64,000 bases of DNA, taken from positions 58,801-122,800 of the forward strand of contig JBBSAM010000003.1 in NCBI GenBank assembly GCA_038252255.1. Reading direction: 5' to 3'. The notes beneath the pieces are model-generated. The model did not search any database. It saw only the letters and a list, made by a program, of their open reading frames with translations, and was not told the origin of the DNA. This stretch comes from Acidimicrobiia bacterium (GTDB taxonomy: Bacteria; Actinomycetota; Acidimicrobiia; IMCC26256; JAENVU01). The position numbers and the translations under genes were made by a program. Below, one piece after another: positions 52,469 to 63,474 of this stretch (position 1 is its first letter; each line of letters starts with the position of its first letter).

Positions 52469-52642
52469 GGGCCACCCTCCATGTTCCCTTGAAGCGTTCT
52501 CCCGAATCGTTCTCTTGCATTGTTGTTCGCTTGAATCCAAGTTCCTTTGAATCTAAGAATCGGTCTCATTACTATCATGGGACGGGAGGCATCTACAATC
52601 CCGAGGCTCCGAAATCGCGAGAGCTGGGAAGGGGACACCACG
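52469..52642. promoter_or_regulatory. AT-richer divergent promoter region of the metal uptake genes; candidate Zur operator(s)
   Basis: This is the least GC-rich stretch seen in the window. It carries four GAATC motifs (52504, 52533, 52549, 52557), CGTTCTC twice, and a TCTCATTA half-site at 52564-52571. Confidence 0.35.
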
Positions 52643-53386
52643 GTGGAGGTGATCGCGGCCGACGGGGTCTGCTTCGCGTACGGCACCGAGCGGGTCCTGG
52701 ACGACGTCGGCATGCATGTCGACGCGGGCGAGTTCGTCGCACTCGTCGGCCCGAACGGCTCGGGCAAGTCCACCCTCGTGCGCATCCTGGTCGGCCTGCT
52801 CACCCCTGACGCCGGCACGGTCCTCGTGTTCGGCGAGACGCCCCGCCGGCTCACCGACCGCGCCCGGTTGGGCTACGTGCCCCAGCGCTCCCAGCTCGTG
52901 GGCGCGCTCCCCGCCACGGTGACCGAGCTCGTCTCCGCCGGCCGGCTGGCCCGCCGGGGCTGGTGGCGGCGACCGGGTCGGGACGACCGGGCCGCGGTCG
53001 ACGCCGCGATCGACGCGGTGGCCCTCGGGGACCTGCGCCGGCGCCCGATCCGCGAGCTGTCCGGCGGCCAGCAGCAGCGCGTGCTGATCGCGAAGGCGCT
53101 CGCGGCCGAACCCGAGCTCCTCGTGCTCGACGAGCCGATCGCCGGCGTCGACGCCGAGTCGCAGCGCCTCTTCCGTGACGCGCTCGTGCACGTGGTACGC
53201 GAGCGGGGCGGCGCCGTCGTCCTCGTCTCCCACGAGCTCGGTGCCGTCGCCGAGGACCTCGACCGCGTCGTGGTGCTGAAGCGCCGAGTGCTGTTCGACG
53301 GCCCGCCCGCCGACCTCGCGGCAACCGGCGTGAGCCTCGGCATCCACCAGGAAGACCTCCCGCTCTGGCTGGAGACGCTGACATGA
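52643..53386 (+). CDS. Metal ABC transporter ATP-binding protein (ZnuC-like)
   Basis: [18 protein letters not shown] and LVLDEP are present. GTG start with a GGAAGGGGA RBS. Confidence 0.85.
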   Translation: MEVIAADGVCFAYGTERVLDDVGMHVDAGEFVALVGPNGSGKSTLVRILVGLLTPDAGTVLVFGETPRRLTDRARLGYVPQRSQLVGALPATVTELVSAGRLARRGWWRRPGRDDRAAVDAAIDAVALGDLRRRPIRELSGGQQQRVLIAKALAAEPELLVLDEPIAGVDAESQRLFRDALVHVVRERGGAVVLVSHELGAVAEDLDRVVVLKRRVLFDGPPADLAATGVSLGIHQEDLPLWLETLT

Positions 53387-54240
53387 ACCTGCCCCTCCCC
53401 TATCCCTTCGACCGCGACTACATGCAGCTCGCGCTCGTCGCCGGGCTGGTCGTCGCATTGTGCGCACCGCTGATCGGGACGTTCCTCGTGGAGAAGCAGC
53501 TGTCCCTGCTCGGCGACGGCCTCGGCCACCTCGCGTTCGCGGGAGTCGCGGTCGGCCTGCTGCTCGCCGTCTCGCCGTTGTGGGCGGCGCTCGTCGTCAC
53601 CGTCGTGGGCGCGCTGGCGCTCGAATACCTGCGATCGCGGGGCCAGGGCTCCGGCGACCTCGTCCTGGCGCTGTTCTTCTACGGCGGCATCGCCGCGGGC
53701 GCGGTGCTCGCCAGCCGTGCGACCGCGGTAGGGCAGAGCGTCAACGTCCTGCCCTACCTCTTCGGTTCGATCCTCACGGTCACACCGGGCGACGTCTGGC
53801 TCATCGTGGCGCTCGGTGCCGTCATCGTCACCAGCATCGCGATCGCCGGCCGCGCGCTGTTCGCGGTCGTCGTGGACGAGGAGGCGGCGCGCGTCTCGGG
53901 CCTGCCCGTCGTCATGCTCAACGGTCTGCTGGTCACCCTGGCCGCGGTCACGATCGTCGCCGCGACCCAGGTCGTCGGGACGCTCCTCGTGGCCGCGCTC
54001 ATGGTGCTGCCCGTGGCATCGGGCCGGTTGGTGGCCCGGTCGTTTCGCACGACGATCGTCGCCGCGGTCTGCGTCGGCCTCTTCTCGGTGATCGTCGGCC
54101 TCGCGATCGCCCGCATCTGGGCGCTCGCGCCCGGCGGGGTCATCGTGCTCGTGTCCGCCGCCGTGTTCCTCGTCACCGTCCTCGCGACCGGCATCCGCCG
54201 CTCCAACATGGCCAACCTGCTCGCGGGGCCTGGACACTGA
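53383..54240 (+). CDS. Metal ABC transporter permease (ZnuB-like)
   Basis: ATGA overlap with the ATPase gene. About 8 TM segments, ABC-3 family-like. Confidence 0.85.
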   Translation: MNLPLPYPFDRDYMQLALVAGLVVALCAPLIGTFLVEKQLSLLGDGLGHLAFAGVAVGLLLAVSPLWAALVVTVVGALALEYLRSRGQGSGDLVLALFFYGGIAAGAVLASRATAVGQSVNVLPYLFGSILTVTPGDVWLIVALGAVIVTSIAIAGRALFAVVVDEEAARVSGLPVVMLNGLLVTLAAVTIVAATQVVGTLLVAALMVLPVASGRLVARSFRTTIVAAVCVGLFSVIVGLAIARIWALAPGGVIVLVSAAVFLVTVLATGIRRSNMANLLAGPGH

Positions 54241-54252
54241 CTGCCTGAGAGA

Positions 54253-54313
54253 CCGCCCGAGGGCGCCTGAGCGATCGCGCTCGGGCCATTCGCCTCCGGA
54301 GACCTCCGGAATC
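54253..54313 (-). repeat. Degenerate single copy of the hairpin repeat family
   Basis: CCG-CCCGAGGGCG-25 nt-CGCCTCCGG-AGACCT-ccggaatc. The arms are no longer perfectly complementary and AGATCT is mutated. It lies between convergent stops. Confidence 0.6.
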
Positions 54314-54776
54314 AGGCGCAGTTCTCGCAGAGACCGAACAGGTCGAGTCGGTGCTGCTGGGTCTTGAAGCCGGTGCGCCGGGCGACCTGGCGGGCGACGT
54401 CGCGCAGTGACCGCTCGATCATCGGCGACGCGGGTACGTCCTCCACGGTGCCGCAGCTCGAGCACACGACGTGGTGGTGGTGCTCGGTGAGCTCTTCGAC
54501 GAGCTCGTAGTACGCGAAGTCGCCGCGGGTCACGACCCGGTGGACGACAGCCGCCTGCTCGAGCACCACGAGGTTGCGGTAGACGCTGCTGACCGCGAGA
54601 TCGGGACGGATCGCGGTGATCTCCGGAATCGTCAACGGCCCGGTGCCCCCGCGGGCGAGCACCTCGAGCAGCGCCTCCCGGTTGGGTGTCAGGCGTTGGT
54701 TGGCCTGCCGCAACCGGCTGCGCACCGTGTCCCGCAAGCCGTCGGTGAGCGGCACGGTCTTCCGCTTCGTCGCCAC
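54312..54776 (-). CDS. Fur family transcriptional regulator (likely Zur)
   Basis: A winged-helix N-terminus is followed by HHHHVVCSSCG...CENC metal sites. It is adjacent to the metal ABC genes. Confidence 0.85.
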   Translation of the reverse strand: MATKRKTVPLTDGLRDTVRSRLRQANQRLTPNREALLEVLARGGTGPLTIPEITAIRPDLAVSSVYRNLVVLEQAAVVHRVVTRGDFAYYELVEELTEHHHHVVCSSCGTVEDVPASPMIERSLRDVARQVARRTGFKTQQHRLDLFGLCENCA

Positions 54777-55510: not shown

Positions 55511-56356
55511 ATGGGTGTCGACATCTCCGGCGCGATCGACCTGCACTGTCATTTCGGTCCCGACGCCCACCGGCAACGATCGGTCACCGCGCTCGAGGCG
55601 GCGGCCCAGGCCCACGCAGCCGGTCACGCCGGCGTGCTGCTGAAGTCGCACACGGAGCCCACCGCGCAGCTCGCCCGCATCGTCGCCGACGCGGTCGAGG
55701 GGATCGCCGTCTACGGCGGGATCTGCTGCGACCACGAGATCGGCGGGCTGAACCCGGCCGCGGTCGAGACCGCGCTCATGCTCGGCGGTCGCATCGTCTG
55801 GTTGCCGACGCTCGCCTCTCGCCAGGACGTGGTCAACGGGGTCGCCGCGCAGCTCGGCATCCCCGGCCCCGGGCTCGTCGTGACCGACGACGACGGCGAG
55901 ATCCTTCCCGTGGTGCACGAGATCGCCGCGCTGTGCCGGGAACACGACGCTGTCCTCGCGACCGGACACGTCAGCGCCGGCGAGCACTTCGCGGTGGCTC
56001 GCGCGTTCGGCGCGGGCCAGCGGGTGCTCGTGACCCACGCGCTCGAAGAGATGGTGGGACCACACCTGACCGTGGCCGAGCTCGAGGAGCTTGCCGATCT
56101 CGGTGCCTGGATCGAGCTCTGCGCGCTGACCTGTGTCGGTGCGCTGGCCTCACGACCGGTCGGTGATCTCGCGGCCGCGGCCGGCCAGATCGGCCCCGGC
56201 CGGTGCACGCTGGCGAGTGACTACGGCCAGGCGCAGAACGCACCACCCGTCGAAGGTCTGCAGCAGTTCGCCGACCTGATGGCGGCCGAGGGCCTGAGCA
56301 CCGACGCGATCCGCACGATGGTCGTGGCCAACCCGGCCACGCTCGTCTCGCGCTGA
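55511..56356 (+). CDS. Amidohydrolase-fold metal-dependent hydrolase-like protein (DUF6282-like)
   Basis: The N-terminus has GAIDLHCHFGPD, followed by TIM-barrel-like alternation. The family assignment is from memory. Confidence 0.55.
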   Translation: MGVDISGAIDLHCHFGPDAHRQRSVTALEAAAQAHAAGHAGVLLKSHTEPTAQLARIVADAVEGIAVYGGICCDHEIGGLNPAAVETALMLGGRIVWLPTLASRQDVVNGVAAQLGIPGPGLVVTDDDGEILPVVHEIAALCREHDAVLATGHVSAGEHFAVARAFGAGQRVLVTHALEEMVGPHLTVAELEELADLGAWIELCALTCVGALASRPVGDLAAAAGQIGPGRCTLASDYGQAQNAPPVEGLQQFADLMAAEGLSTDAIRTMVVANPATLVSR

Positions 56357-56357
56357 C

Positions 56358-56807
56358 TCAGCGGCCGCCGGCGCGCGCCGACGCAACGGCGCCGAGCGCC
56401 CGGGTCAGGTCACCGGCCACGGCCGGCGAGACGTTGCGCCCGAGATGCTCGTCGAGGGCCGCGGTGTACACCGCGTGCGCCCGGCGAAAGCGCGTTCTCC
56501 CGCTACGGGTGAGCGCGACCAGGGTCGCACGCCCGTCATCGGGATCCACGCGGCGTTCGACGATCCCGTCGCGCTCCATCCGCTGGATCAGCCGGCTCAA
56601 GCCGGGCTGGCTGTACCGCACCCGCATGAGCTCCTGCAGCTCCCGGAGCCGCATCGGCTTGCCGGACCGATCCAGGTACGCAAGCACGGAGTACGTCCCG
56701 GAGTCGATCCCGCCGTCCCGCTCGAGCGCGCTGACCACGTCGCGGAGCACCGGCTGGTACACCGCGACCAGCGCGCTCCAGAGCCGGGCGGCGTGTCCGT
56801 CGGTCAC
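56358..56807 (-). CDS. MarR family transcriptional regulator
   Basis: wHTH region (MRLRELQELMRVRYSQPGLSRLIQRMERDGIVER). GTGA overlap with the upstream gene. Confidence 0.85.
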   Translation of the reverse strand: MTDGHAARLWSALVAVYQPVLRDVVSALERDGGIDSGTYSVLAYLDRSGKPMRLRELQELMRVRYSQPGLSRLIQRMERDGIVERRVDPDDGRATLVALTRSGRTRFRRAHAVYTAALDEHLGRNVSPAVAGDLTRALGAVASARAGGR

Positions 56808-57055
56808 GGCCGGCGCGGATCGTCGAGGAGCAGCTCGAACTCACCGGGGACCCGCCGCCCGATCGCGTCGTTGATGGTCCGGGCCAGCTCGTCCGGCGCG
56901 AGCACGCACTCCGCGCAGCTCACGTCGTCGAAGCGGAGCTCGAGGTGGACACGGAGCGTCTTCGGGTCTGCTTCGACGAGCACGAGGTCCGCGCCATCGG
57001 CGCGCAACATGCGCGCCAGCTCGTCCACCGCCCCGGCGACTGCTTCGCGTTCCAC
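56804..57055 (-). CDS. NifU C-terminal-domain-like small protein with CxxC
   Basis: LARMLRADGADLVLVEAD...RVHLEL...SCAECVL resembles the NifU/Nfu C-terminal fold. Confidence 0.55.
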   Translation of the reverse strand: MEREAVAGAVDELARMLRADGADLVLVEADPKTLRVHLELRFDDVSCAECVLAPDELARTINDAIGRRVPGEFELLLDDPRRP

Positions 57056-57057
57056 GA

Positions 57058-58113
57058 TCAGCGGGTGCCGCGCGCCGGCGCACTCTGCATCTGGCTCTCA
57101 CCGAAGCTCGGCAGCGCCACGGCATGCAGGCTGCCCAGCCCACCGCACACGACGGGAACGATCTGATCCGCGCGCGCGGTGAGGTACACGCGGTCGCCGG
57201 GGGCCACCCGCCCCTTCGCCCGCAGGATCTCGCGGTTCGGCTCCGGCCAGAGATCGAGCGGTTGCCAGGCGTGCTCATGGAGGAAGGTCTGGAGGTCGTT
57301 GACCTCCGCGAAGACCGCACCGAACCGCTCGGCCCACATCGGGTTCACGGCCAAGACCACCTCACCGTTCTCGGCATTGCCGAGGAACATGTTCGCGAGT
57401 GGGTACGCGAGGCTCTTCGCCAGCAGCTCCAGCAGGTCGCGCGCGTCGTCGTTGTGGATGTCGGCCATCGGGAAGGTCCCCTTGCCCCCGTGGACGGTGA
57501 CCACGTCGACCTCCGGCGCGTACCCGCGCCGTTCGGCGAGCGACGGCCATGGCGAGCGTTCTTCCCACTCGCCGAAGCACAGCCCGAAGCGAGCGGGCTG
57601 ACCGAACACGGTTCGGGACGTCTCCCCCGCTCGTTGCCCACCGATGTTGCGGAGGCACAGCGAGACCGCGCGGCCGACCGTCATCGATCCGCGGCCGGCC
57701 GCGCCACCCATGCAGCCGGCTCGGTAGTCGATGCCCAGCCGGTCCCGCGACGGCCCGTTCACGATCAGCATGGGGAACACGCTCGACGTCGTGGTGGTGA
57801 GGCCGAAGGCGTTCCACTCGGGCGCCAGGAGCGCGTCGAGCGCGGCCAGCACGAGCGGGAACGCCTCCGGCTGCACGCCCGCCATCGCCGCGTTCGTCGC
57901 CACGAGCTCGACGGTCGCCACCCCGGCGCGCGGCGGCAACACCCCCACGACCTGGTCCGGCGGATCCGGGGTGCAGGCGAGCAGCGCCTCGATCGCCACA
58001 TCCGTCGGGGGCAGGAGCGGCGCGCCGTCCCCCCAGTGCTCGGCCAGCGACAGCTCGTAGAACGCGGCCGCGTCGGCGGAGATCTCGAGCCGCGGGCTGG
58101 ACAGGTTGCTCAC
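57058..58113 (-). CDS. Conserved-looking hypothetical protein (351 aa), unknown function
   Basis: GTG start overlapping the upstream stop (GTGA). The composition is protein-like. No recognised domain. Confidence 0.6.
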   Translation of the reverse strand: MSNLSSPRLEISADAAAFYELSLAEHWGDGAPLLPPTDVAIEALLACTPDPPDQVVGVLPPRAGVATVELVATNAAMAGVQPEAFPLVLAALDALLAPEWNAFGLTTTTSSVFPMLIVNGPSRDRLGIDYRAGCMGGAAGRGSMTVGRAVSLCLRNIGGQRAGETSRTVFGQPARFGLCFGEWEERSPWPSLAERRGYAPEVDVVTVHGGKGTFPMADIHNDDARDLLELLAKSLAYPLANMFLGNAENGEVVLAVNPMWAERFGAVFAEVNDLQTFLHEHAWQPLDLWPEPNREILRAKGRVAPGDRVYLTARADQIVPVVCGGLGSLHAVALPSFGESQMQSAPARGTR

Positions 58114-58655
58114 CGCGTGACGCCGAGGAGGTCCAGGGCGCGGGGGTAGGCGTCCGCCGAGATGGCGAGGAGCTCGTCGTGCGGCCGCGCTTCGAGCGGG
58201 TACGGGAGCACGAGGATGCGGAGGTCACCGTGGCCGAGATGGCCGGCCATGTTGTGCCCGTGCGTCGCGAACTCGTCGGTGACGACCGCGACCACCGGCC
58301 GCCTCCGTTCCTCGAGCGCGACCGCGTCGGCGATCGCGAACGATGTGCACGAGCCGCAGGTGCCGAGGCCGACGATCGCGAAGTCGACGGCGTCGGCCAG
58401 GTCGCCGACGTGGCTCCGGTCCGTCGAGCCCGTGCGACCGACCTGGCCGTGCGTCTCGACCGTCTCGACCGCGAGCACGCCGTCGCGCCGCAGGCGCGCT
58501 TCCCAGTCAGCCGCGATGAGACGCCACGAGCGCCAGGCCGCGTCGGTGCGGATCCCCGCCCGGAGGCCGCGGAGCGGGCCGTCGACCCGGAAGGTCGGGG
58601 CCGCGACCTCGGGGGCGGGTGGAGCGGTAGGCCGGCGGATCCAGATCGTGCTCAC
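58110..58655 (-). CDS. UGSC-family-like protein, Cys variant (motif TCGSC)
   Basis: GLGTCGSCTSF corresponds to the (U/C)GSC motif of the UGSC (seleno)protein family as I recall it. GTG start. About 181 aa. Confidence 0.55.
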   Translation of the reverse strand: MSTIWIRRPTAPPAPEVAAPTFRVDGPLRGLRAGIRTDAAWRSWRLIAADWEARLRRDGVLAVETVETHGQVGRTGSTDRSHVGDLADAVDFAIVGLGTCGSCTSFAIADAVALEERRRPVVAVVTDEFATHGHNMAGHLGHGDLRILVLPYPLEARPHDELLAISADAYPRALDLLGVTR

Positions 58656-58674
58656 CCGCCCAGCCTAGAGATCC

Positions 58675-58686
58675 ATGCGCACGCAT
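58675..58686. promoter_or_regulatory. Palindrome ATGCG-CA-CGCAT upstream of the MarR-linked operon, candidate MarR operator
   Basis: 5-bp perfect inverted arms lie 20 bp upstream of the GTG at 58655, in a 56-bp intergenic region. Confidence 0.3.
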
Positions 58687-58711
58687 ACAACTGGTCCGGA
58701 CGTCCGACCGC

Positions 58712-59689
58712 CTACTGCGTCACCCCCGAGGGGGCGCCGTCGCCGCCGGCGCCGGGCGGGGGCCCGCCGAAGCCGACGAGCGCGCCTTCGCGGATGGAGG
58801 TGGCGGTGATGGTGCCGTTGGAGTCCTGGCCGCGCACCATGATCGTGTCCCCGACCTTGAGGTCGGAGAGCGATCCGGGCTTGGAGACGGTCACCTCGGT
58901 CGACGACGTCGTGGTGACGGTCACCGCGTTGCCGTCGAGCCCGGTGACCGTGAACGTTCCGTCACCCGCGGACTGCACGACCCCACGGGTGAACGTCGTG
59001 CCACTCGCGCCGCCCGGGGCCTGGCCACCGGCGCCGGGACCGCCGAACCGCCGGCCGCCGTAGCCCTGGCCGCTGCCGCCGCCCGGGGGCCCGCCGTTGC
59101 CGCCCGGTCCGGCGAATCCGCCCGGACCGTTCGCGTCGCTCGACACCACACCGTCATCGGTGACCCGCGTCGCCGCGATGTTGGGAGACGATCCCGTGCC
59201 GACGACCGTCACGGTGTCGCCGACCTTGATGTCGCCGGTCGTCCCGCTGGCGGACGTGGTCACCGCCGTCGCGGACGTGGTGACCACCTTGGTGGTCGCT
59301 CCGCTCCGGTCCTTGATGGTCAGCTTGGAACCCTCGATGCTCGCAATCGTGCCGAAGCCGCCGGGTCCGCGCCGGAAGCCGGGTTGGCCACCCTGCGCCT
59401 GTGACTGGCCCGCACCACCCGGCTGGTTCGCGGCCGGCGCCTGGCTCGAGACCGCGGCGTTCGAGGAGTCCGACGAGGTTGCGGCACTGATTCCGAACAC
59501 CGCGGCCGCACCGACCACCGCGGCACCCGCGCCGACGGCGACCCACGTCCGCCACGAGGGTTTCCACGGCTCCTTCTCCGTCGCCCGGGTCACGGGCAGC
59601 CCGGTCTCGGGCAGCCCGGTCTCGGGCAGCCCGAACGTGGGGGTCTCGGGCTCGGGTGGCGAGCTCGGTGTGGTCGTGTCGTCATCCAT
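58712..59689 (-). CDS. Membrane-anchored Gly-rich protein with two DUF5666-like beta domains
   Basis: An N-terminal TM helix is followed by two repeats of the pattern G(T/S)...V(T/K)...T...IKVGDTV/LKVGDTI, separated by GGPGG-rich linkers. Confidence 0.65.
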   Translation of the reverse strand: MDDDTTTPSSPPEPETPTFGLPETGLPETGLPVTRATEKEPWKPSWRTWVAVGAGAAVVGAAAVFGISAATSSDSSNAAVSSQAPAANQPGGAGQSQAQGGQPGFRRGPGGFGTIASIEGSKLTIKDRSGATTKVVTTSATAVTTSASGTTGDIKVGDTVTVVGTGSSPNIAATRVTDDGVVSSDANGPGGFAGPGGNGGPPGGGSGQGYGGRRFGGPGAGGQAPGGASGTTFTRGVVQSAGDGTFTVTGLDGNAVTVTTTSSTEVTVSKPGSLSDLKVGDTIMVRGQDSNGTITATSIREGALVGFGGPPPGAGGDGAPSGVTQ

Positions 59690-59731: not shown

Positions 59732-61495
59732 TCACTGGCCCGGCGCGCCGCGGAAGAACGGGCCGGGCGGCCCGCCGGCGGGAAACCCGCCCGGGCCGGT
59801 CGTGCCCGAGCCCGAGCTGGAGGATGCGGTCGCGGAACCGGGCAGTGGCTGCGAGAGATCGGCGAGGACCACCTGCTGGCCTGCGGTGACCCCGGACTCG
59901 ATCGCCGTCCACGTGGCGCCGATCACCCCGACCTGCACCAACACCCGCCGGGCGGTGCTCCCGTCGAGGACGGTGACCGTGTGGCGGCTGCCGATCGCCG
60001 TGACGGCCGACGTCGGTACCGCGAGGGCGGCGCGCGAGCTCGCGGTGACGATGGCGACGGAGCCGGTCGAGCCATTGTCGAGGTTCGTGCCCTTGCCGGT
60101 CAGACCGATCACGACCCGGTAGCTCGTCGCGGTCGCGTTGTTGTCCGGGGCGATCGAGATCGCGGTGACCGTGCCGGCGAGTGGCTGCTTCCTGCCGTCC
60201 GGCAGGAACGTGGCGGGCTGGCCGACCTTGATCTTGGTGATGTCGTCGACGCTGACCGTCGTGGTGATCTCGTAGCCACCCGTGCCGACCACCACGATGT
60301 TCGCGGTCGAGGACGCGCTCGTAACGGAGTCACCCACGGCCAGGTTGACGGCCTCGACGGTGCCGGCGATCGGGCTGACGATCGTCGCCTGCGCGATCGC
60401 CTGCTGGGCCGCGACGACCTCGGCGGCGGCCGCGTCCACCGCCTTCTGGTCGGCCGCGAGGTCGGCCGACGACGGTGCCGCCGCCGTGGCCGGGCTCGAT
60501 CCGGGCGCGCCGACCGGCGAGCTCCCGCCGGCGCTCGCGCCGGTCCCCGAACCCGCGTTGCCTCCGGACACCGCTGCCGCGGCCTGCTGCGCGAGGAGCG
60601 CGTCGAGAGCCGTCGAAGCCTGCGCGAGCTGCTGCTGCGCGGTGCTGACGGCCGTCTGCGCGCGTAGGACCGATCGCGTCGCGGTCTGGCACGCGGTCAA
60701 CGCACCGCTCGTCGGTGCCGCCGGGCCGGTCGTGCCGACGCCGGCCGCCGCACACACCGTGGCGGCGGAGTCGAGCGCCTCCGTTGCGGTGTTGATCGCC
60801 GCGTCGACGCGCTGCTGCGCGGCGAGCACGGCCTGCTGGGCGTCCGGGAGCGAGGCGCCGGCACCCGGAGCACCGGAGCCGTTCGTGCCCGAGGGCCCGC
60901 TCGCACCGGCCGGGATGGACAGCGCGGTGAGCTTGACACCCCCACCGCTGCCGGACGCGCTCGAACCGCTGCCGGTTCCGGCACCCGACACGCCACCGGA
61001 ACCGGAGACCGATTCGCCGTTCAGCGCCCGGGACAGGACGAGCTCGGCCTGCGCGAGGGATGCCTCCCTGTCGTGCAGCGTCTGGGTCAATGCCGCCGGA
61101 TCGAGCGACGCGAGCGGCTGCCCGACCGTCACGGGGTCACCGACCTTGACGTTCACCGAGGCCACGGTCCCCGACGACGGGAACGAGACCGAAGACTGGG
61201 AGATCGGCTCGACGCTCGCGACACCGTTCAGGAGCGCGTCGACATCGTGCTGGTCGACGACGGCCGTGCGGTAACCGGCATCCGTGGCCCCGAAGGCCTG
61301 CGACGCGAGCACGAGGCTCCCGACGGCGACCACCGCGATCATGCCCACGACCAGACGGCGCTTCCGCTGAAACCACCGCGGCCGCGGGGCCGACGGGTCC
61401 GGGAACAAGGTCGCGAGCCGCTCCCGCGCCGACGCGGAGCGCAGCGGCAGACCCGCGGCGCGAGCGTTCGGGGACGATTGCGCTTCGAGGGCCAT
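59732..61495 (-). CDS. Efflux transporter periplasmic adaptor (HlyD/MacA-like membrane fusion protein) with an Ala/Gly/Ser-rich insertion
   Basis: N-terminal TM, a lipoyl-like hairpin (VKVGDPVTVGQPLASLD), coiled-coil segments and a C-terminal beta-barrel. Confidence 0.8.
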   Translation of the reverse strand: MALEAQSSPNARAAGLPLRSASARERLATLFPDPSAPRPRWFQRKRRLVVGMIAVVAVGSLVLASQAFGATDAGYRTAVVDQHDVDALLNGVASVEPISQSSVSFPSSGTVASVNVKVGDPVTVGQPLASLDPAALTQTLHDREASLAQAELVLSRALNGESVSGSGGVSGAGTGSGSSASGSGGGVKLTALSIPAGASGPSGTNGSGAPGAGASLPDAQQAVLAAQQRVDAAINTATEALDSAATVCAAAGVGTTGPAAPTSGALTACQTATRSVLRAQTAVSTAQQQLAQASTALDALLAQQAAAAVSGGNAGSGTGASAGGSSPVGAPGSSPATAAAPSSADLAADQKAVDAAAAEVVAAQQAIAQATIVSPIAGTVEAVNLAVGDSVTSASSTANIVVVGTGGYEITTTVSVDDITKIKVGQPATFLPDGRKQPLAGTVTAISIAPDNNATATSYRVVIGLTGKGTNLDNGSTGSVAIVTASSRAALAVPTSAVTAIGSRHTVTVLDGSTARRVLVQVGVIGATWTAIESGVTAGQQVVLADLSQPLPGSATASSSSGSGTTGPGGFPAGGPPGPFFRGAPGQ

Positions 61496-61498
61496 GGT

Positions 61499-62731
61499 TC
61501 ACTCGCTCCTGAGCGCGTCGATCGGGGCGAGCCGAGCCGCGCGGGATGCGGGGTACACGCCAAACACCACACCGATGCCCATCGCCATGACGATGGCGCC
61601 GAGGCCGGCGGGGACGGAGAGGATCACCCTCGAGTCCGTGAAGAGCGGCAGCACCGCCGCGCCGATCAGACCCAGGGCGACACCGAGCACCCCGCCGGCG
61701 AGCCCGAGCACCGACGCCTCGACCAGGAACTGGCGGCGGATGAGCCGGGGCCGCGCGCCGAGCGACTTCCGCAAGCCGATCTCGCGCACGCGCTCGGTCA
61801 CGGACACCAACATGATGTTCATCACGCCGATCCCACCGACGAGCAGCGAGATGATCGCGATCCCGCCGAGCATGACGGTCAGGGTGTCGTCGACCGAGTT
61901 GGCCGCGCTGAGGATCGACTGCTGCGTCGCGATCGAGAAGTCGGCGTCCGTGCGCGCCGTGATGTGGTGCGTGTTGAGCAGGAGGGCGTCGGCCTCCTGG
62001 TACGCGGCGGACAGCGTGGCGGCTGACGCCGCCTTCACCGAGATGGAGCTCACCGAGTTCCGGCTCGTGCCGCCGACCAGCCGTTGCGAGTAGGTGCTGA
62101 GGGGCACGATCGCGAGATCGTTGTTCGACGTGGCCTCGGAGGAGCTCAGCTCTCGGAGCACCCCGATGACCTCGAGCTTGACGCCGTTGTAGCTGACGCT
62201 CCGGCCGACGGGATCGCCCGCGGTGAACAGCTCGCTCGCGGTATCGGGTCCGAGGACGACGACGGCCTTCGCCTGGCTCTCGTCGGCCGCGGTGAGGAAC
62301 CGGCCCGAGGACACCCCGCGCGACCGCACCGCCTTCCAGCTGGGCGTGGTGCCCGTGAGCGTCGTCGTCCAGTTCGTCGAGCCGTTGACCAGCGAGACCG
62401 TCGACGTCGACGTCGCGGCGACCGCCTGGATGTCGGGCGCGGCCGCCTTGGACGTGAGCGCGGCCGCGTCCTGCACGGTCAGCGTGGACGCGGAGCCGAA
62501 CCCGCCCCGCGTGCCGGAGCTCGAGGTGGTGCTGCCCGGCGAGATCACGAGCAGGTTCGTACCGAGCTCGTTGATCTGGTCCTGCACCTGCGCCCGCGCG
62601 CCTTCACCGAGACCGACGGTCAGCACGACCGCGGTGATGCCGATGAGGATCCCGAGCATGGTCAGCGCCGAGCGCAGCCGGTGCGTGCGGACGGCTTCGG
62701 TTGCGGTGCGGAACGTGTCGCGCCAGCTCAT
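61499..62731 (-). CDS. ABC transporter permease (MacB/FtsX family)
   Basis: [17 protein letters not shown], a large periplasmic loop, and a C-terminal FtsX domain ([11 protein letters not shown]). ATGA overlap with the ATPase gene. Confidence 0.9.
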
Positions 62732-63474
62732 GGCGCCACGCCGGTGAGACGCGGGCCCGCCGCGGAGGAGTCCGGGGTCCATACCCGCCCGTCACGAATC
62801 TGGATGGACCGCTGCGCGCGCCGCGCGATGTCGGGCTCGTGCGTGATCAGCACGATCGTGCGCCCCTCCTGGTTGAGCGCTGCGAGCAGGTCGAGCACCT
62901 CGCCGGTCGATGTGGAGTCGAGGTTGCCCGTGGGCTCGTCGGCCAGGATGAGCGCCGGCTCGGTGACGAGCGCCCGCGCGATGGCGACCCGTTGCTGCTG
63001 GCCACCGGACAGCTCACCCGGCTTGTGGTCCGCGCGGTCGCCCAGGCCGACCTTGTCGAGCGCGGCCAGCGCGCGCTCCCGTCGTTCGGCCGGGTTGACG
63101 CCGCTGTACATCAGGGGCAGCTCGACGTTGCGCCACGCCGGGAGATAGGCGAGCAGGTTGAACTGCTGGAACACGAAGCCGATGAACAGGTTTCGCACGT
63201 CAGCGAGCTGGTCCTCGTCGAACGACTGCGCGTCGTGGCCGGCCAGGCGGAAGATCCCCGAGGTCGGGACGTCGAGGCAGCCGAGGATGTGCATCAACGT
63301 CGACTTCCCCGACCCGGACGGCCCGGTGATCGCGACGAAGTCGTTCTCCTCGATGCGCACCGAGATGTCGCGCAGCGCGGCGACCTCGAACGCGCCGGTC
63401 CGGTAGATCTTGCTGACGTCGAGCAGCTCGATGATCGCCGGGAGACCGGGGTCGCGCGGGGCGGAGGCGGTCAT
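62728..63474 (-). CDS. ABC transporter ATP-binding protein (MacB/LolD-type)
   Basis: [24 protein letters not shown] and [11 protein letters not shown] are present. Confidence 0.92.

Follow-up and report, generated by a model that had tools for sequence, protein, structure and literature searches.

What does a protein of the UGSC family do, and with which partners does it do it? The question is raised by a compact four-gene operon in a 64,000-nucleotide stretch of DNA from an Acidimicrobiia bacterium (contig JBBSAM010000003.1, positions 58,801 to 122,800; hereafter the window), which encodes, in order of transcription, a UGSC protein, a 351-residue protein that we call X351, a small NifU-like protein and a MarR-family regulator. 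UGSC has been listed since 2005-2008 and is among the most abundant selenoproteins of aquatic metagenomes (Zhang and Gladyshev, 2008; PMC2398784). Our analysis indicates that it nearly always works with a structurally unmatched domain of ~350 residues, encoded next to it or fused to it, in thousands of sequence clusters. We see about an even chance that the operon specifies a cytoplasmic thiol-dependent enzyme system (selenol-dependent in relatives) with a substrate in organic-acid catabolism and a MarR repressor released by a ligand.

The operon and its conserved core

The window has a G+C content of ~71% and its nearest relatives are metagenome-assembled genomes (MAGs) of Acidimicrobiia. The four open reading frames (ORFs) of the operon lie on the minus strand (Table 1), with 4-nt GTGA stop/start overlaps between the UGSC and X351 genes (58110-58113) and between the NifU-like and MarR genes (56804-56807), and a gap of 2 nt between X351 and the NifU-like gene (57056-57057). 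ORF coordinates and sequence thus agree with the initial annotation, which was made from the letters alone and had described exactly this packing. Hidden Markov model (HMM) searches of all four proteins against Pfam and NCBIfam, as proposed there, returned UGSC, NifU and MarR matches, in keeping with the families that had been named by eye, and nothing for X351.

The 181-residue protein matches the Pfam UGSC family (PF24696) at 104.2 bits against a cutoff of 25, with residues 9-178 aligned to profile positions 5-171 of 172, and contains IVGLGTCGSCTSF; it is a UGSC protein in the Cys form, as first annotated. It falls below the equivalog cutoff of NCBIfam NF041046 (69.5 against 125 bits) because its N-terminal half is divergent, residues 75-177 alone being aligned. 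Both cysteines of C100-G-S-C103 are invariant (67 orthologues) and Cys is encoded at the first motif position in the window and in all 66 extracted orthologues, with no selenocysteine (Sec) among them. Relatives elsewhere carry U-G-[SG]-C with an in-frame TGA, which places Sec at the position of C100, and the haloarchaeal and Roseovarius homologues are named 'UGSC family (seleno)protein' in RefSeq. In the actinobacterial subfamily H132 and H142 are invariant or nearly so, which does not hold for the fusions described below. Residues 127-169 (GHNMAGHLGHGDLRILVLPYPLE) also gave matches at E~1e-5 to RCC1-repeat proteins (UVR8), which are due to a GxLGHGD motif; we rejected these as spurious, together with weak P-loop-like PDB matches from the sequence and profile searches.

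How well is the arrangement kept in other genomes? A search with an X351 profile yielded 80 loci from different species of Acidimicrobiia, other Actinomycetota (including the cultured Yinghuangia) and Myxococcota MAGs. The UGSC gene lies directly upstream of X351 on the same strand in 75 of them, three of the exceptions being cuts at contig ends, and a NifU-like gene is present in 77. Two gene orders exist, UGSC-X351-NifU(-MarR) and NifU-UGSC-X351, with MarR confined to the former. The conserved core is therefore the triad of UGSC, X351 and NifU-like genes, to which MarR is a clade-specific addition; the four genes had been expected to be co-conserved, and this expectation is borne out for the triad (~75-77 of 80 loci) but not for MarR, which is limited to one clade. 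Past the triad the flanks vary, and no widely conserved neighbour emerged from a single-linkage ORF clustering, which collapsed into one low-complexity cluster. Since the arrangement is kept across 80 species-level genomes and other lineages have its first two genes as a fusion, it is, on this comparative evidence, far beyond chance.

Several Actinomycetota hold, near the main triad, a second and far more divergent X351-UGSC pair (L009:2824-4349 and L034:2673-4221, both on the minus strand; L037, L057, L061, L064), with reversed gene order, no NifU-like gene and neither C153 nor C323 of X351.

X351 and its fusions with UGSC

The closest tie between the two proteins is seen in X351-family members of ~530-570 residues, which carry a complete N-terminal UGSC domain, with a CGSC motif in the fusions P0154 and P0166. 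Many other members, of ~415-430 residues, start within the UGSC domain. In loci L082 and L084 one frame runs through a TGA, at GSGD(TGA)GGCTSW and GSGD(TGA)GSCTSW, which shows that gene callers have split Sec-form fusions to give the ~415-430-residue forms. A conserved hairpin begins 11-14 nt after the UGA and fits a bacterial selenocysteine insertion sequence (SECIS). Public gene calls cut the Sec-form UGSC at this UGA (L082:5674-7293, L084:5647-7260, L086:7662-9275, L090:6456-8068, L094:8004-9661), leaving a ~96-residue 'UGSC' gene and, after it, a 410-430-residue fusion of UGSC tail and X351 in L082, L084 and L086, while in L090 and L094 the UGSC tail is short and X351 is a gene of its own; such truncated calls make up most of the 120 nearest relatives of P0154. 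UGSC and X351 are, as the natural fusions argue, physically linked partners, and in Sec-using lineages, whose neighbourhoods the initial annotation had marked for inspection, they usually appear to form one selenoprotein of ~540 residues. A fusion named 'UGSC/Unknown_1' appears as early as the 2008 paper on GOS (Global Ocean Sampling) data (PMC2398784); its Unknown_1 is probably X351.

The natural fusion P0154 was modelled with high confidence, with a predicted local distance difference test score (pLDDT) of 90 and a predicted template-modelling score (pTM) of 0.87, which suggests that the two domains are held in a fixed arrangement. The UGSC motif sits in the model between a beta-strand and a helix, and a Foldseek search of the model against the PDB returned flavodoxin-like alpha/beta domains, all aligned to the UGSC half: azoreductase, lumazine synthase, the flavodoxin domain of flavodiiron proteins, PTS-IIB and RpiB. 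No thioredoxin (Trx) was among the top 50 matches of this model, which is of a homologue and not of the window protein. From this homologue we predict the 181-residue protein to be a flavodoxin-like redox domain, not one of Trx-like fold.

What is X351 then? The window protein has no match in Pfam, NCBIfam, PHROGs or PDB sequences (searched with the single sequence and, for the PDB, also with a profile), and a scan of 54 diverse fused and split relatives at E<=10 gave no consistent family besides UGSC in the fused members. The family is large, its profile reaching 4,456 clusters (50% identity) at E<1e-3 and 838 at E<1e-30. A stand-alone model of X351 is of medium quality (pLDDT 72.5, pTM 0.76), with the lowest confidence in the most conserved loops; Foldseek found no PDB match for it better than E = 0.5, and nothing credible for the X351 half of the P0154 model. 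The protein in which no domain had been recognised thus resembles neither a known enzyme family nor a solved fold, also after the structure prediction that had been recommended for it.

Residues D29, E69, N74, T108, C179, E182, E184 and H330 are conserved throughout the family, C179 in 117 of 118 and H330 in 111 of 112 fusion relatives; of the TTTTSS stretch T108 alone is shared by the whole family, and C134 varies. Proteins of ~710-740 residues (P0175, P0199, P0238) consist of two X351 copies in tandem, and in haloarchaea two X351 paralogues flank UGSC (L095:4840-7539; L096:5983-8645). Such paired copies hint at a (pseudo)dimeric working unit.

We propose that X351 is the substrate-binding catalytic component, with C179, H330, D29, E69, E182 and E184 as candidate active-site residues, and that UGSC is a flavodoxin-like redox module docked on it, in which Cys100-x-x-Cys103 (Sec-x-x-Cys elsewhere) would cycle between dithiol and disulfide. 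In Roseovarius the gene order is X351-UGSC-trxB, with trxB scoring 392 bits against an equivalog cutoff of 343 for thioredoxin reductase (TrxR), and in Variovorax a TrxR-like gene is followed by TctC and then by a UGSC-X351 fusion. The Sec-form fusions and the Roseovarius trxB strengthen a thiol/selenol-redox reading, and with it the earlier suggestion of a thiol-based redox or metal-handling module.

A narrower version of this proposal takes the likeness to Stickland reductases literally: UGSC would act as the UxxC part of GrdB/PrdB does, attacking a substrate bound to X351 and being recycled by a thioredoxin-type system, so that the pair would be the counterpart, in aerobes, of glycine or D-proline reductase and work on an amino- or otherwise substituted carboxylate. 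PrdB indeed carries the same type of UxxC motif (table in PMC2398784), Sec/Cys interchange is typical of nucleophilic redox catalysis, Roseovarius trxB stands next to the pair, and among the neighbours in other lineages are genes whose products handle amino compounds (D-amino-acid-dehydrogenase-like, asparaginase, amidase, sarcosine-oxidase-like and 3-keto-5-aminohexanoate cleavage genes). However, no member matches Pfam GRDB (PF07355) or Gly_reductase (PF09338) at E<=10, and the window proteins gave no matches to the GrdB/PrdB (PF07355) and GrdE/PrdA (PF09338) HMMs at E<=0.1. X351 lacks a conserved Ser/Cys self-cleavage site for a pyruvoyl group, and analogues of GrdA, GrdC and GrdD are all missing. 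We regard this version as unlikely; a reading of X351 as a pyruvoyl enzyme we reject on its sequence, given that it has neither a family-wide Ser/Cys cleavage dipeptide nor a Gly_reductase match.

The NifU-like protein, the regulator and the genomic context

The 83-residue protein, which contains VSCAECV and had been likened to the NifU C-terminal domain for its SCAEC motif, scores 23.6 bits with Pfam NifU (PF01106), just under the cutoff of 27. The assignment is supported by its relatives: all 15 of 15 diverse orthologues match NifU (best E 7.8e-8), and the orthologue profile reaches the NifU-like PDB chains 2z51 and 1xhj at 6e-4 and 2e-3. C47 and C50 are invariant and align on the CxxC of 1xhj. 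In the thiol-dependent system that we propose, this protein could be the dedicated thiol-disulfide shuttle through which UGSC is recycled, or it could donate an iron-sulfur (Fe-S) or other metal centre to a site formed by C153, H208 and C323 of X351.

These three residues are invariant in the subfamily of the window alone and are replaced elsewhere by V/I, V/I and A. A NifU-like gene adjoins 70 of 75 X351 copies with the trio and lies ~3 kb away from three more, as against 0 of 15 copies without it, a correlation drawn from one lineage. The co-occurrence suggests a metal or Fe-S site, or a redox relay, that is specific to the NifU-linked subfamily and served by the NifU-like protein.

Could the metal centre then be the heart of the enzyme? 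X351 would in that case be a dehydratase, isomerase or lyase with an Fe-S or metal centre at C134/C153/C323/H208 of its window-type form, installed by the NifU-like protein, and the part of UGSC would be to hold the ligand cysteines in the reduced state or to gate the active site, the chemistry being carried out on carboxylates with no net redox change. Nfu-type domains are Fe-S carriers, so the Nfu-type assignment of the 83-residue protein speaks for it, as do the three positions that change together, in precisely the NifU-linked subfamily, from V/I, V/I, A to C, H, C, and the low model confidence of the most conserved X351 loops, which is often seen for cofactor sites. Neighbouring MmgE/PrpD, aconitase X, ICL/PEP-mutase and HpcH aldolase genes act on di- and tricarboxylates. 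On the other hand, the trio is absent from most of the X351 family, all Sec-form fusions included, and therefore cannot be the core catalytic device; the use of selenocysteine points to redox or nucleophilic catalysis; and the NifU-like ORF of locus L089 accompanies a unit without the trio. A metal-centred, non-redox enzyme is in our judgement improbable.

The last gene of the operon encodes a 149-residue MarR protein, as annotated, with domain scores above threshold (MarR_2 41.8 bits, cutoff 27; MarR 31.7 bits, cutoff 24.6) and no equivalog-level NCBIfam match (the best, BilQ, reached 34.6 bits against a cutoff of 125, and the OhrR model 16 against 200). It contains no cysteine, as is also the case in 26 of 31 orthologues. 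A thiol-switch regulator of the OhrR/MgrA type is thereby rejected, and the hint that MarR might respond to redox or electrophiles is not upheld: sensing by thiol oxidation is unlikely, and judging from its composition the protein is more likely a ligand-responsive regulator. It is probably the autorepressor of its own operon.

The palindrome that had been noticed ~20 bp upstream of the first gene is present 19 nt before its start; its coding-strand sequence is ATGCG-TG-CGCAT (plus strand, ATGCG-CA-CGCAT), and ATGCGNNCGCAT occurs once in the 64-kb window. ATGCG-NN-CGCAT has 35 occurrences in 859 kb (the 80 loci), and 34 of 34 listed sites lie <=150 nt upstream of a UGSC gene. The arms are invariant and the 2-nt spacer is free to vary, a classic footprint. 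Among loci with enough flanking sequence, the exact palindrome is found in 28 of 31 with a MarR gene, the remaining three being one base off, and in 1 of 31 without (Fisher p = 7e-13, not phylogenetically corrected). The extended consensus is T.TATGCG..CGCATA.A, or aTTGtATGCGnnCGCATatATC..TA across the promoter, and the candidate operator sequence in the window is TTGTATGCGTGCGCATGGAT. Conservation and spacing delineate putative -35 and -10 hexamers around most of the palindrome, which is therefore the likely operator of MarR, and the 6-nt distance from the -10-like hexamer to the GTG suggests a leaderless or near-leaderless mRNA. We propose that the Cys-free MarR binds ATGCG-NN-CGCAT between the two elements and represses this leaderless promoter until a small-molecule ligand frees it from the operator.

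MarR control together with two CxxC proteins would also suit a stress or detoxification module, in which a thiol system would remove an electrophile, oxidant or metal(loid) by reduction or sequestration, in the manner of OhrR/Ohr or arsenate reductase systems. Genes for glutathione S-transferase (GST), nitroreductase and universal stress protein do lie near a few loci, and in Paracoccus the unit is found in the vicinity of genes for DsrE, TusA and cysteine desulfurase. Yet the MarR is without the cysteines by which OhrR/MgrA-type regulators sense, the conserved unit holds no efflux or peroxidase gene, the prevailing contexts are catabolic genes and carboxylate transporters, and metabolic regulators of the LysR, IclR and GntR types stand in for MarR in other lineages. 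We consider such a role very unlikely.

Which substrate, then, would the thiol-dependent enzyme act on? Among cultured organisms, Cys-form versions occur in Yinghuangia, Embleya, Roseovarius and haloarchaea. For context we also examined annotated plasmids and chromids of cultured organisms (Natrinema, Halorientalis, Haladaptatus, Roseovarius, Variovorax and Paracoccus ferrooxidans). Genes for TctC/Bug carboxylate-binding proteins lie beside or near the UGSC/X351 units of Betaproteobacteria, where locus L087 holds three units and other neighbours are MmgE/PrpD, HpcH/HpaI and LysR regulators. Other members are surrounded by genes for acyl-CoA dehydrogenases, CoA-transferases, enoyl-CoA hydratases, thiolases, Mo-hydroxylases (CoA, coenzyme A) and ABC or MFS transporters, and the carboxylate-binding neighbours include TctC, TRAP and TAXI proteins, with a CoA-ester lyase as well. 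The substrate is probably a small carboxylic acid, an amino or acyl-CoA-type catabolic intermediate.

A further recurrent associate is DUF6282, whose gene lies next to the operon, convergent to it, both in the window and in L002-L007 and forms part of UGSC/X351 operons in three haloarchaea, Natrinema, Halorientalis and Haladaptatus (L093:9663-10514, L096:1859-2755 and L097:1802-2698). The order is UGSC-X351-DUF6282-NAD(P)-binding-MFS on a single strand in Natrinema, and DUF6282-LLM-CoA transferase-CoA ester lyase-X351(-UGSC-X351)-TAXI TRAP in the other two. The link between DUF6282 and UGSC/X351 recurs across domains of life, and in the window DUF6282 is a possible functional associate that lies outside the operon itself. 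No paper in the literature mentions DUF6282; the protein has an HxH-type N-terminus and a weak dihydroorotase-like match.

On plasmid pFER4 of Paracoccus ferrooxidans the Sec-form UGSC and X351 pair (L094:8004-9661) lies between selA and selB, adjoining DsrE, TusA and cysteine desulfurase genes, and may be a principal client of its host's Sec machinery.

In the window, the DUF5666 protein encoded directly upstream of the operon reached 15 of the 52.5 bits required (E = 0.02) with ExtJ, a protein of the selenite/tellurite reduction operon, a match that is probably meaningless; its synteny with the operon is kept in L006, L024 and L028. Further away, 52547-54776 looks like a Zur-type metal-uptake locus.

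Table 1. Coordinates of the operon, its putative control elements and neighbouring genes (positions within the window)
Feature	Position	Strand	Remarks
UGSC protein, Cys form	58110..58655	-	181 residues; Pfam PF24696 104 bits; C100-G-S-C103
X351, family without a name, presumed catalytic/substrate-binding UGSC partner	57058..58113	-	351 residues
NifU C-terminal/Nfu-like protein	56804..57055	-	83 residues; C47-x-x-C50 invariant
MarR-family regulator, last operon gene	56358..56807	-	149 residues; MarR_2 41.8 bits; no cysteine
UGSC start codon GTG	58655-58653	-	6 nt past -10-like hexamer
-10-like hexamer TAGGCT	58662..58667	-	17 nt past -35; TA kept in 28-30 of 35 sites
Spacer, 17 nt	58668..58684	-	holds most of palindrome
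Operator palindrome ATGCG-NN-CGCAT, predicted MarR site	58675..58686		19 nt before GTG 58655
-35-like hexamer TTGTAT	58685..58690	-	read from sequence; TTG kept in 30-34 of 35 aligned sites, window included
DUF6282 gene	55511..56356	+	PF19799 190 bits; convergent, ends 1 nt from MarR stop
DUF5666 protein, Gly/Pro-rich	58712-59689	-	directly upstream of operon
HlyD-type adaptor	59732-61495	-	upstream of operon
MacB/FtsX permease	61499-62782	-	upstream of operon
Fur-family regulator	54312-54776	-	adjoins ABC-3/Znu-type permease
ABC-3/Znu-type permease	53383-54240		beside Fur-family regulator
ABC ATPase	52547-53386		beside Znu-type permease

A possible enzyme class and its comparison with known systems

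Several observations weigh against the thiol- or selenol-dependent enzyme system that we favour. A Haladaptatus operon (L097:6022-7029) has X351 without any UGSC gene and fusion P0179 carries a degenerate WSGV with neither Cys, so a redox-active UGSC is not always needed. TrxR-like neighbours occur in 2 of 101 loci alone, which is not statistically meaningful. Replication of the link between trio and NifU-like gene in a second lineage failed, the NifU-like ORF of L089 (with CEEC) lying beside a fused unit of great divergence and without the trio. A scan with a generic sigma-70 consensus called no promoter at the operon, and UGSC is still of unknown function in the literature, a 2026 review included.

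It is possible, though in our view less likely than not, that UGSC and X351 together constitute a previously unrecognised Sec/Cys-dependent enzyme class with a new catalytic fold, carrying out a reductive (Stickland-like) or Sec-nucleophile step in the catabolism of small carboxylic or amino acids. If so, the class would be widespread in aerobic microbes of soil, freshwater, marine and hypersaline habitats, it would account for the rank of UGSC among the most abundant aquatic selenoproteins, and its Cys-form variant, assisted by the NifU-like protein and under MarR control, would be what the operon in the window encodes.

How does the operon compare with what has been described? The UGSC family and its fusion to an unknown domain are already in the literature, always as of function unknown. 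Apparently undescribed are how large the partner family is and how it is delimited, the absence of any solved structural relative for it, the systematic splitting of Sec-form fusions in gene calls, the NifU-linked variant in Cys form that has the additional Cys/His trio, and the MarR operator and DUF6282 link. The window protein shares with the UGSC family (PF24696/NF041046) the full-length Pfam match and the (U/C)GSC motif, but is a Cys form with a divergent N-terminal half, under the equivalog cutoff. The literature suggests a Trx-like fold for the family, whereas the model of the homologous fusion gives flavodoxin-like matches, and the papers found do not cover the extent of the partner family, the NifU-like and MarR genes or the operator.

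The resemblance to the Stickland reductases (GrdB/GrdE, PrdB/PrdA) is one of analogy: a UxxC selenoprotein subunit would be paired with a second, substrate-binding subunit, electrons would come via a thioredoxin system, and the substrates would be small carboxylates. The differences are that the present proteins belong to none of those sequence families, that there is no pyruvoyl-type partner and no GrdA, GrdC or GrdD, that UGSC/X351 hosts are mostly aerobes (Acidimicrobiia, Proteobacteria, haloarchaea), and that X351 has no relative of solved structure.

With the Nfu and NifU C-terminal proteins (PF01106; 1xhj, 2z51) the 83-residue protein shares its size, an end-to-end alignment and the position of the CxxC. 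In contrast to them it is highly divergent and sub-threshold, has C-x-[ED]-C in place of the C-G-[ST]-C of 1xhj, and is encoded in a catabolic-type operon, not in an isc, suf or nif cluster. Like the autoregulated MarR operons whose palindromic operators overlap the promoter, the operon here has a winged-helix MarR encoded together with its proposed targets and, between putative -35 and -10 elements, a pseudo-palindrome of 18 bp; the window MarR differs in having no equivalog match and no cysteine and so is not a sensor of the OhrR/MgrA type. The operator is sharply defined for the MarR of this one clade, and the ligand that this regulator binds should give a lead to the substrate. Since the Cys-form operon is also a tractable, selenium-free handle on UGSC function, a long-standing unknown selenoprotein becomes a directly testable enzyme problem.

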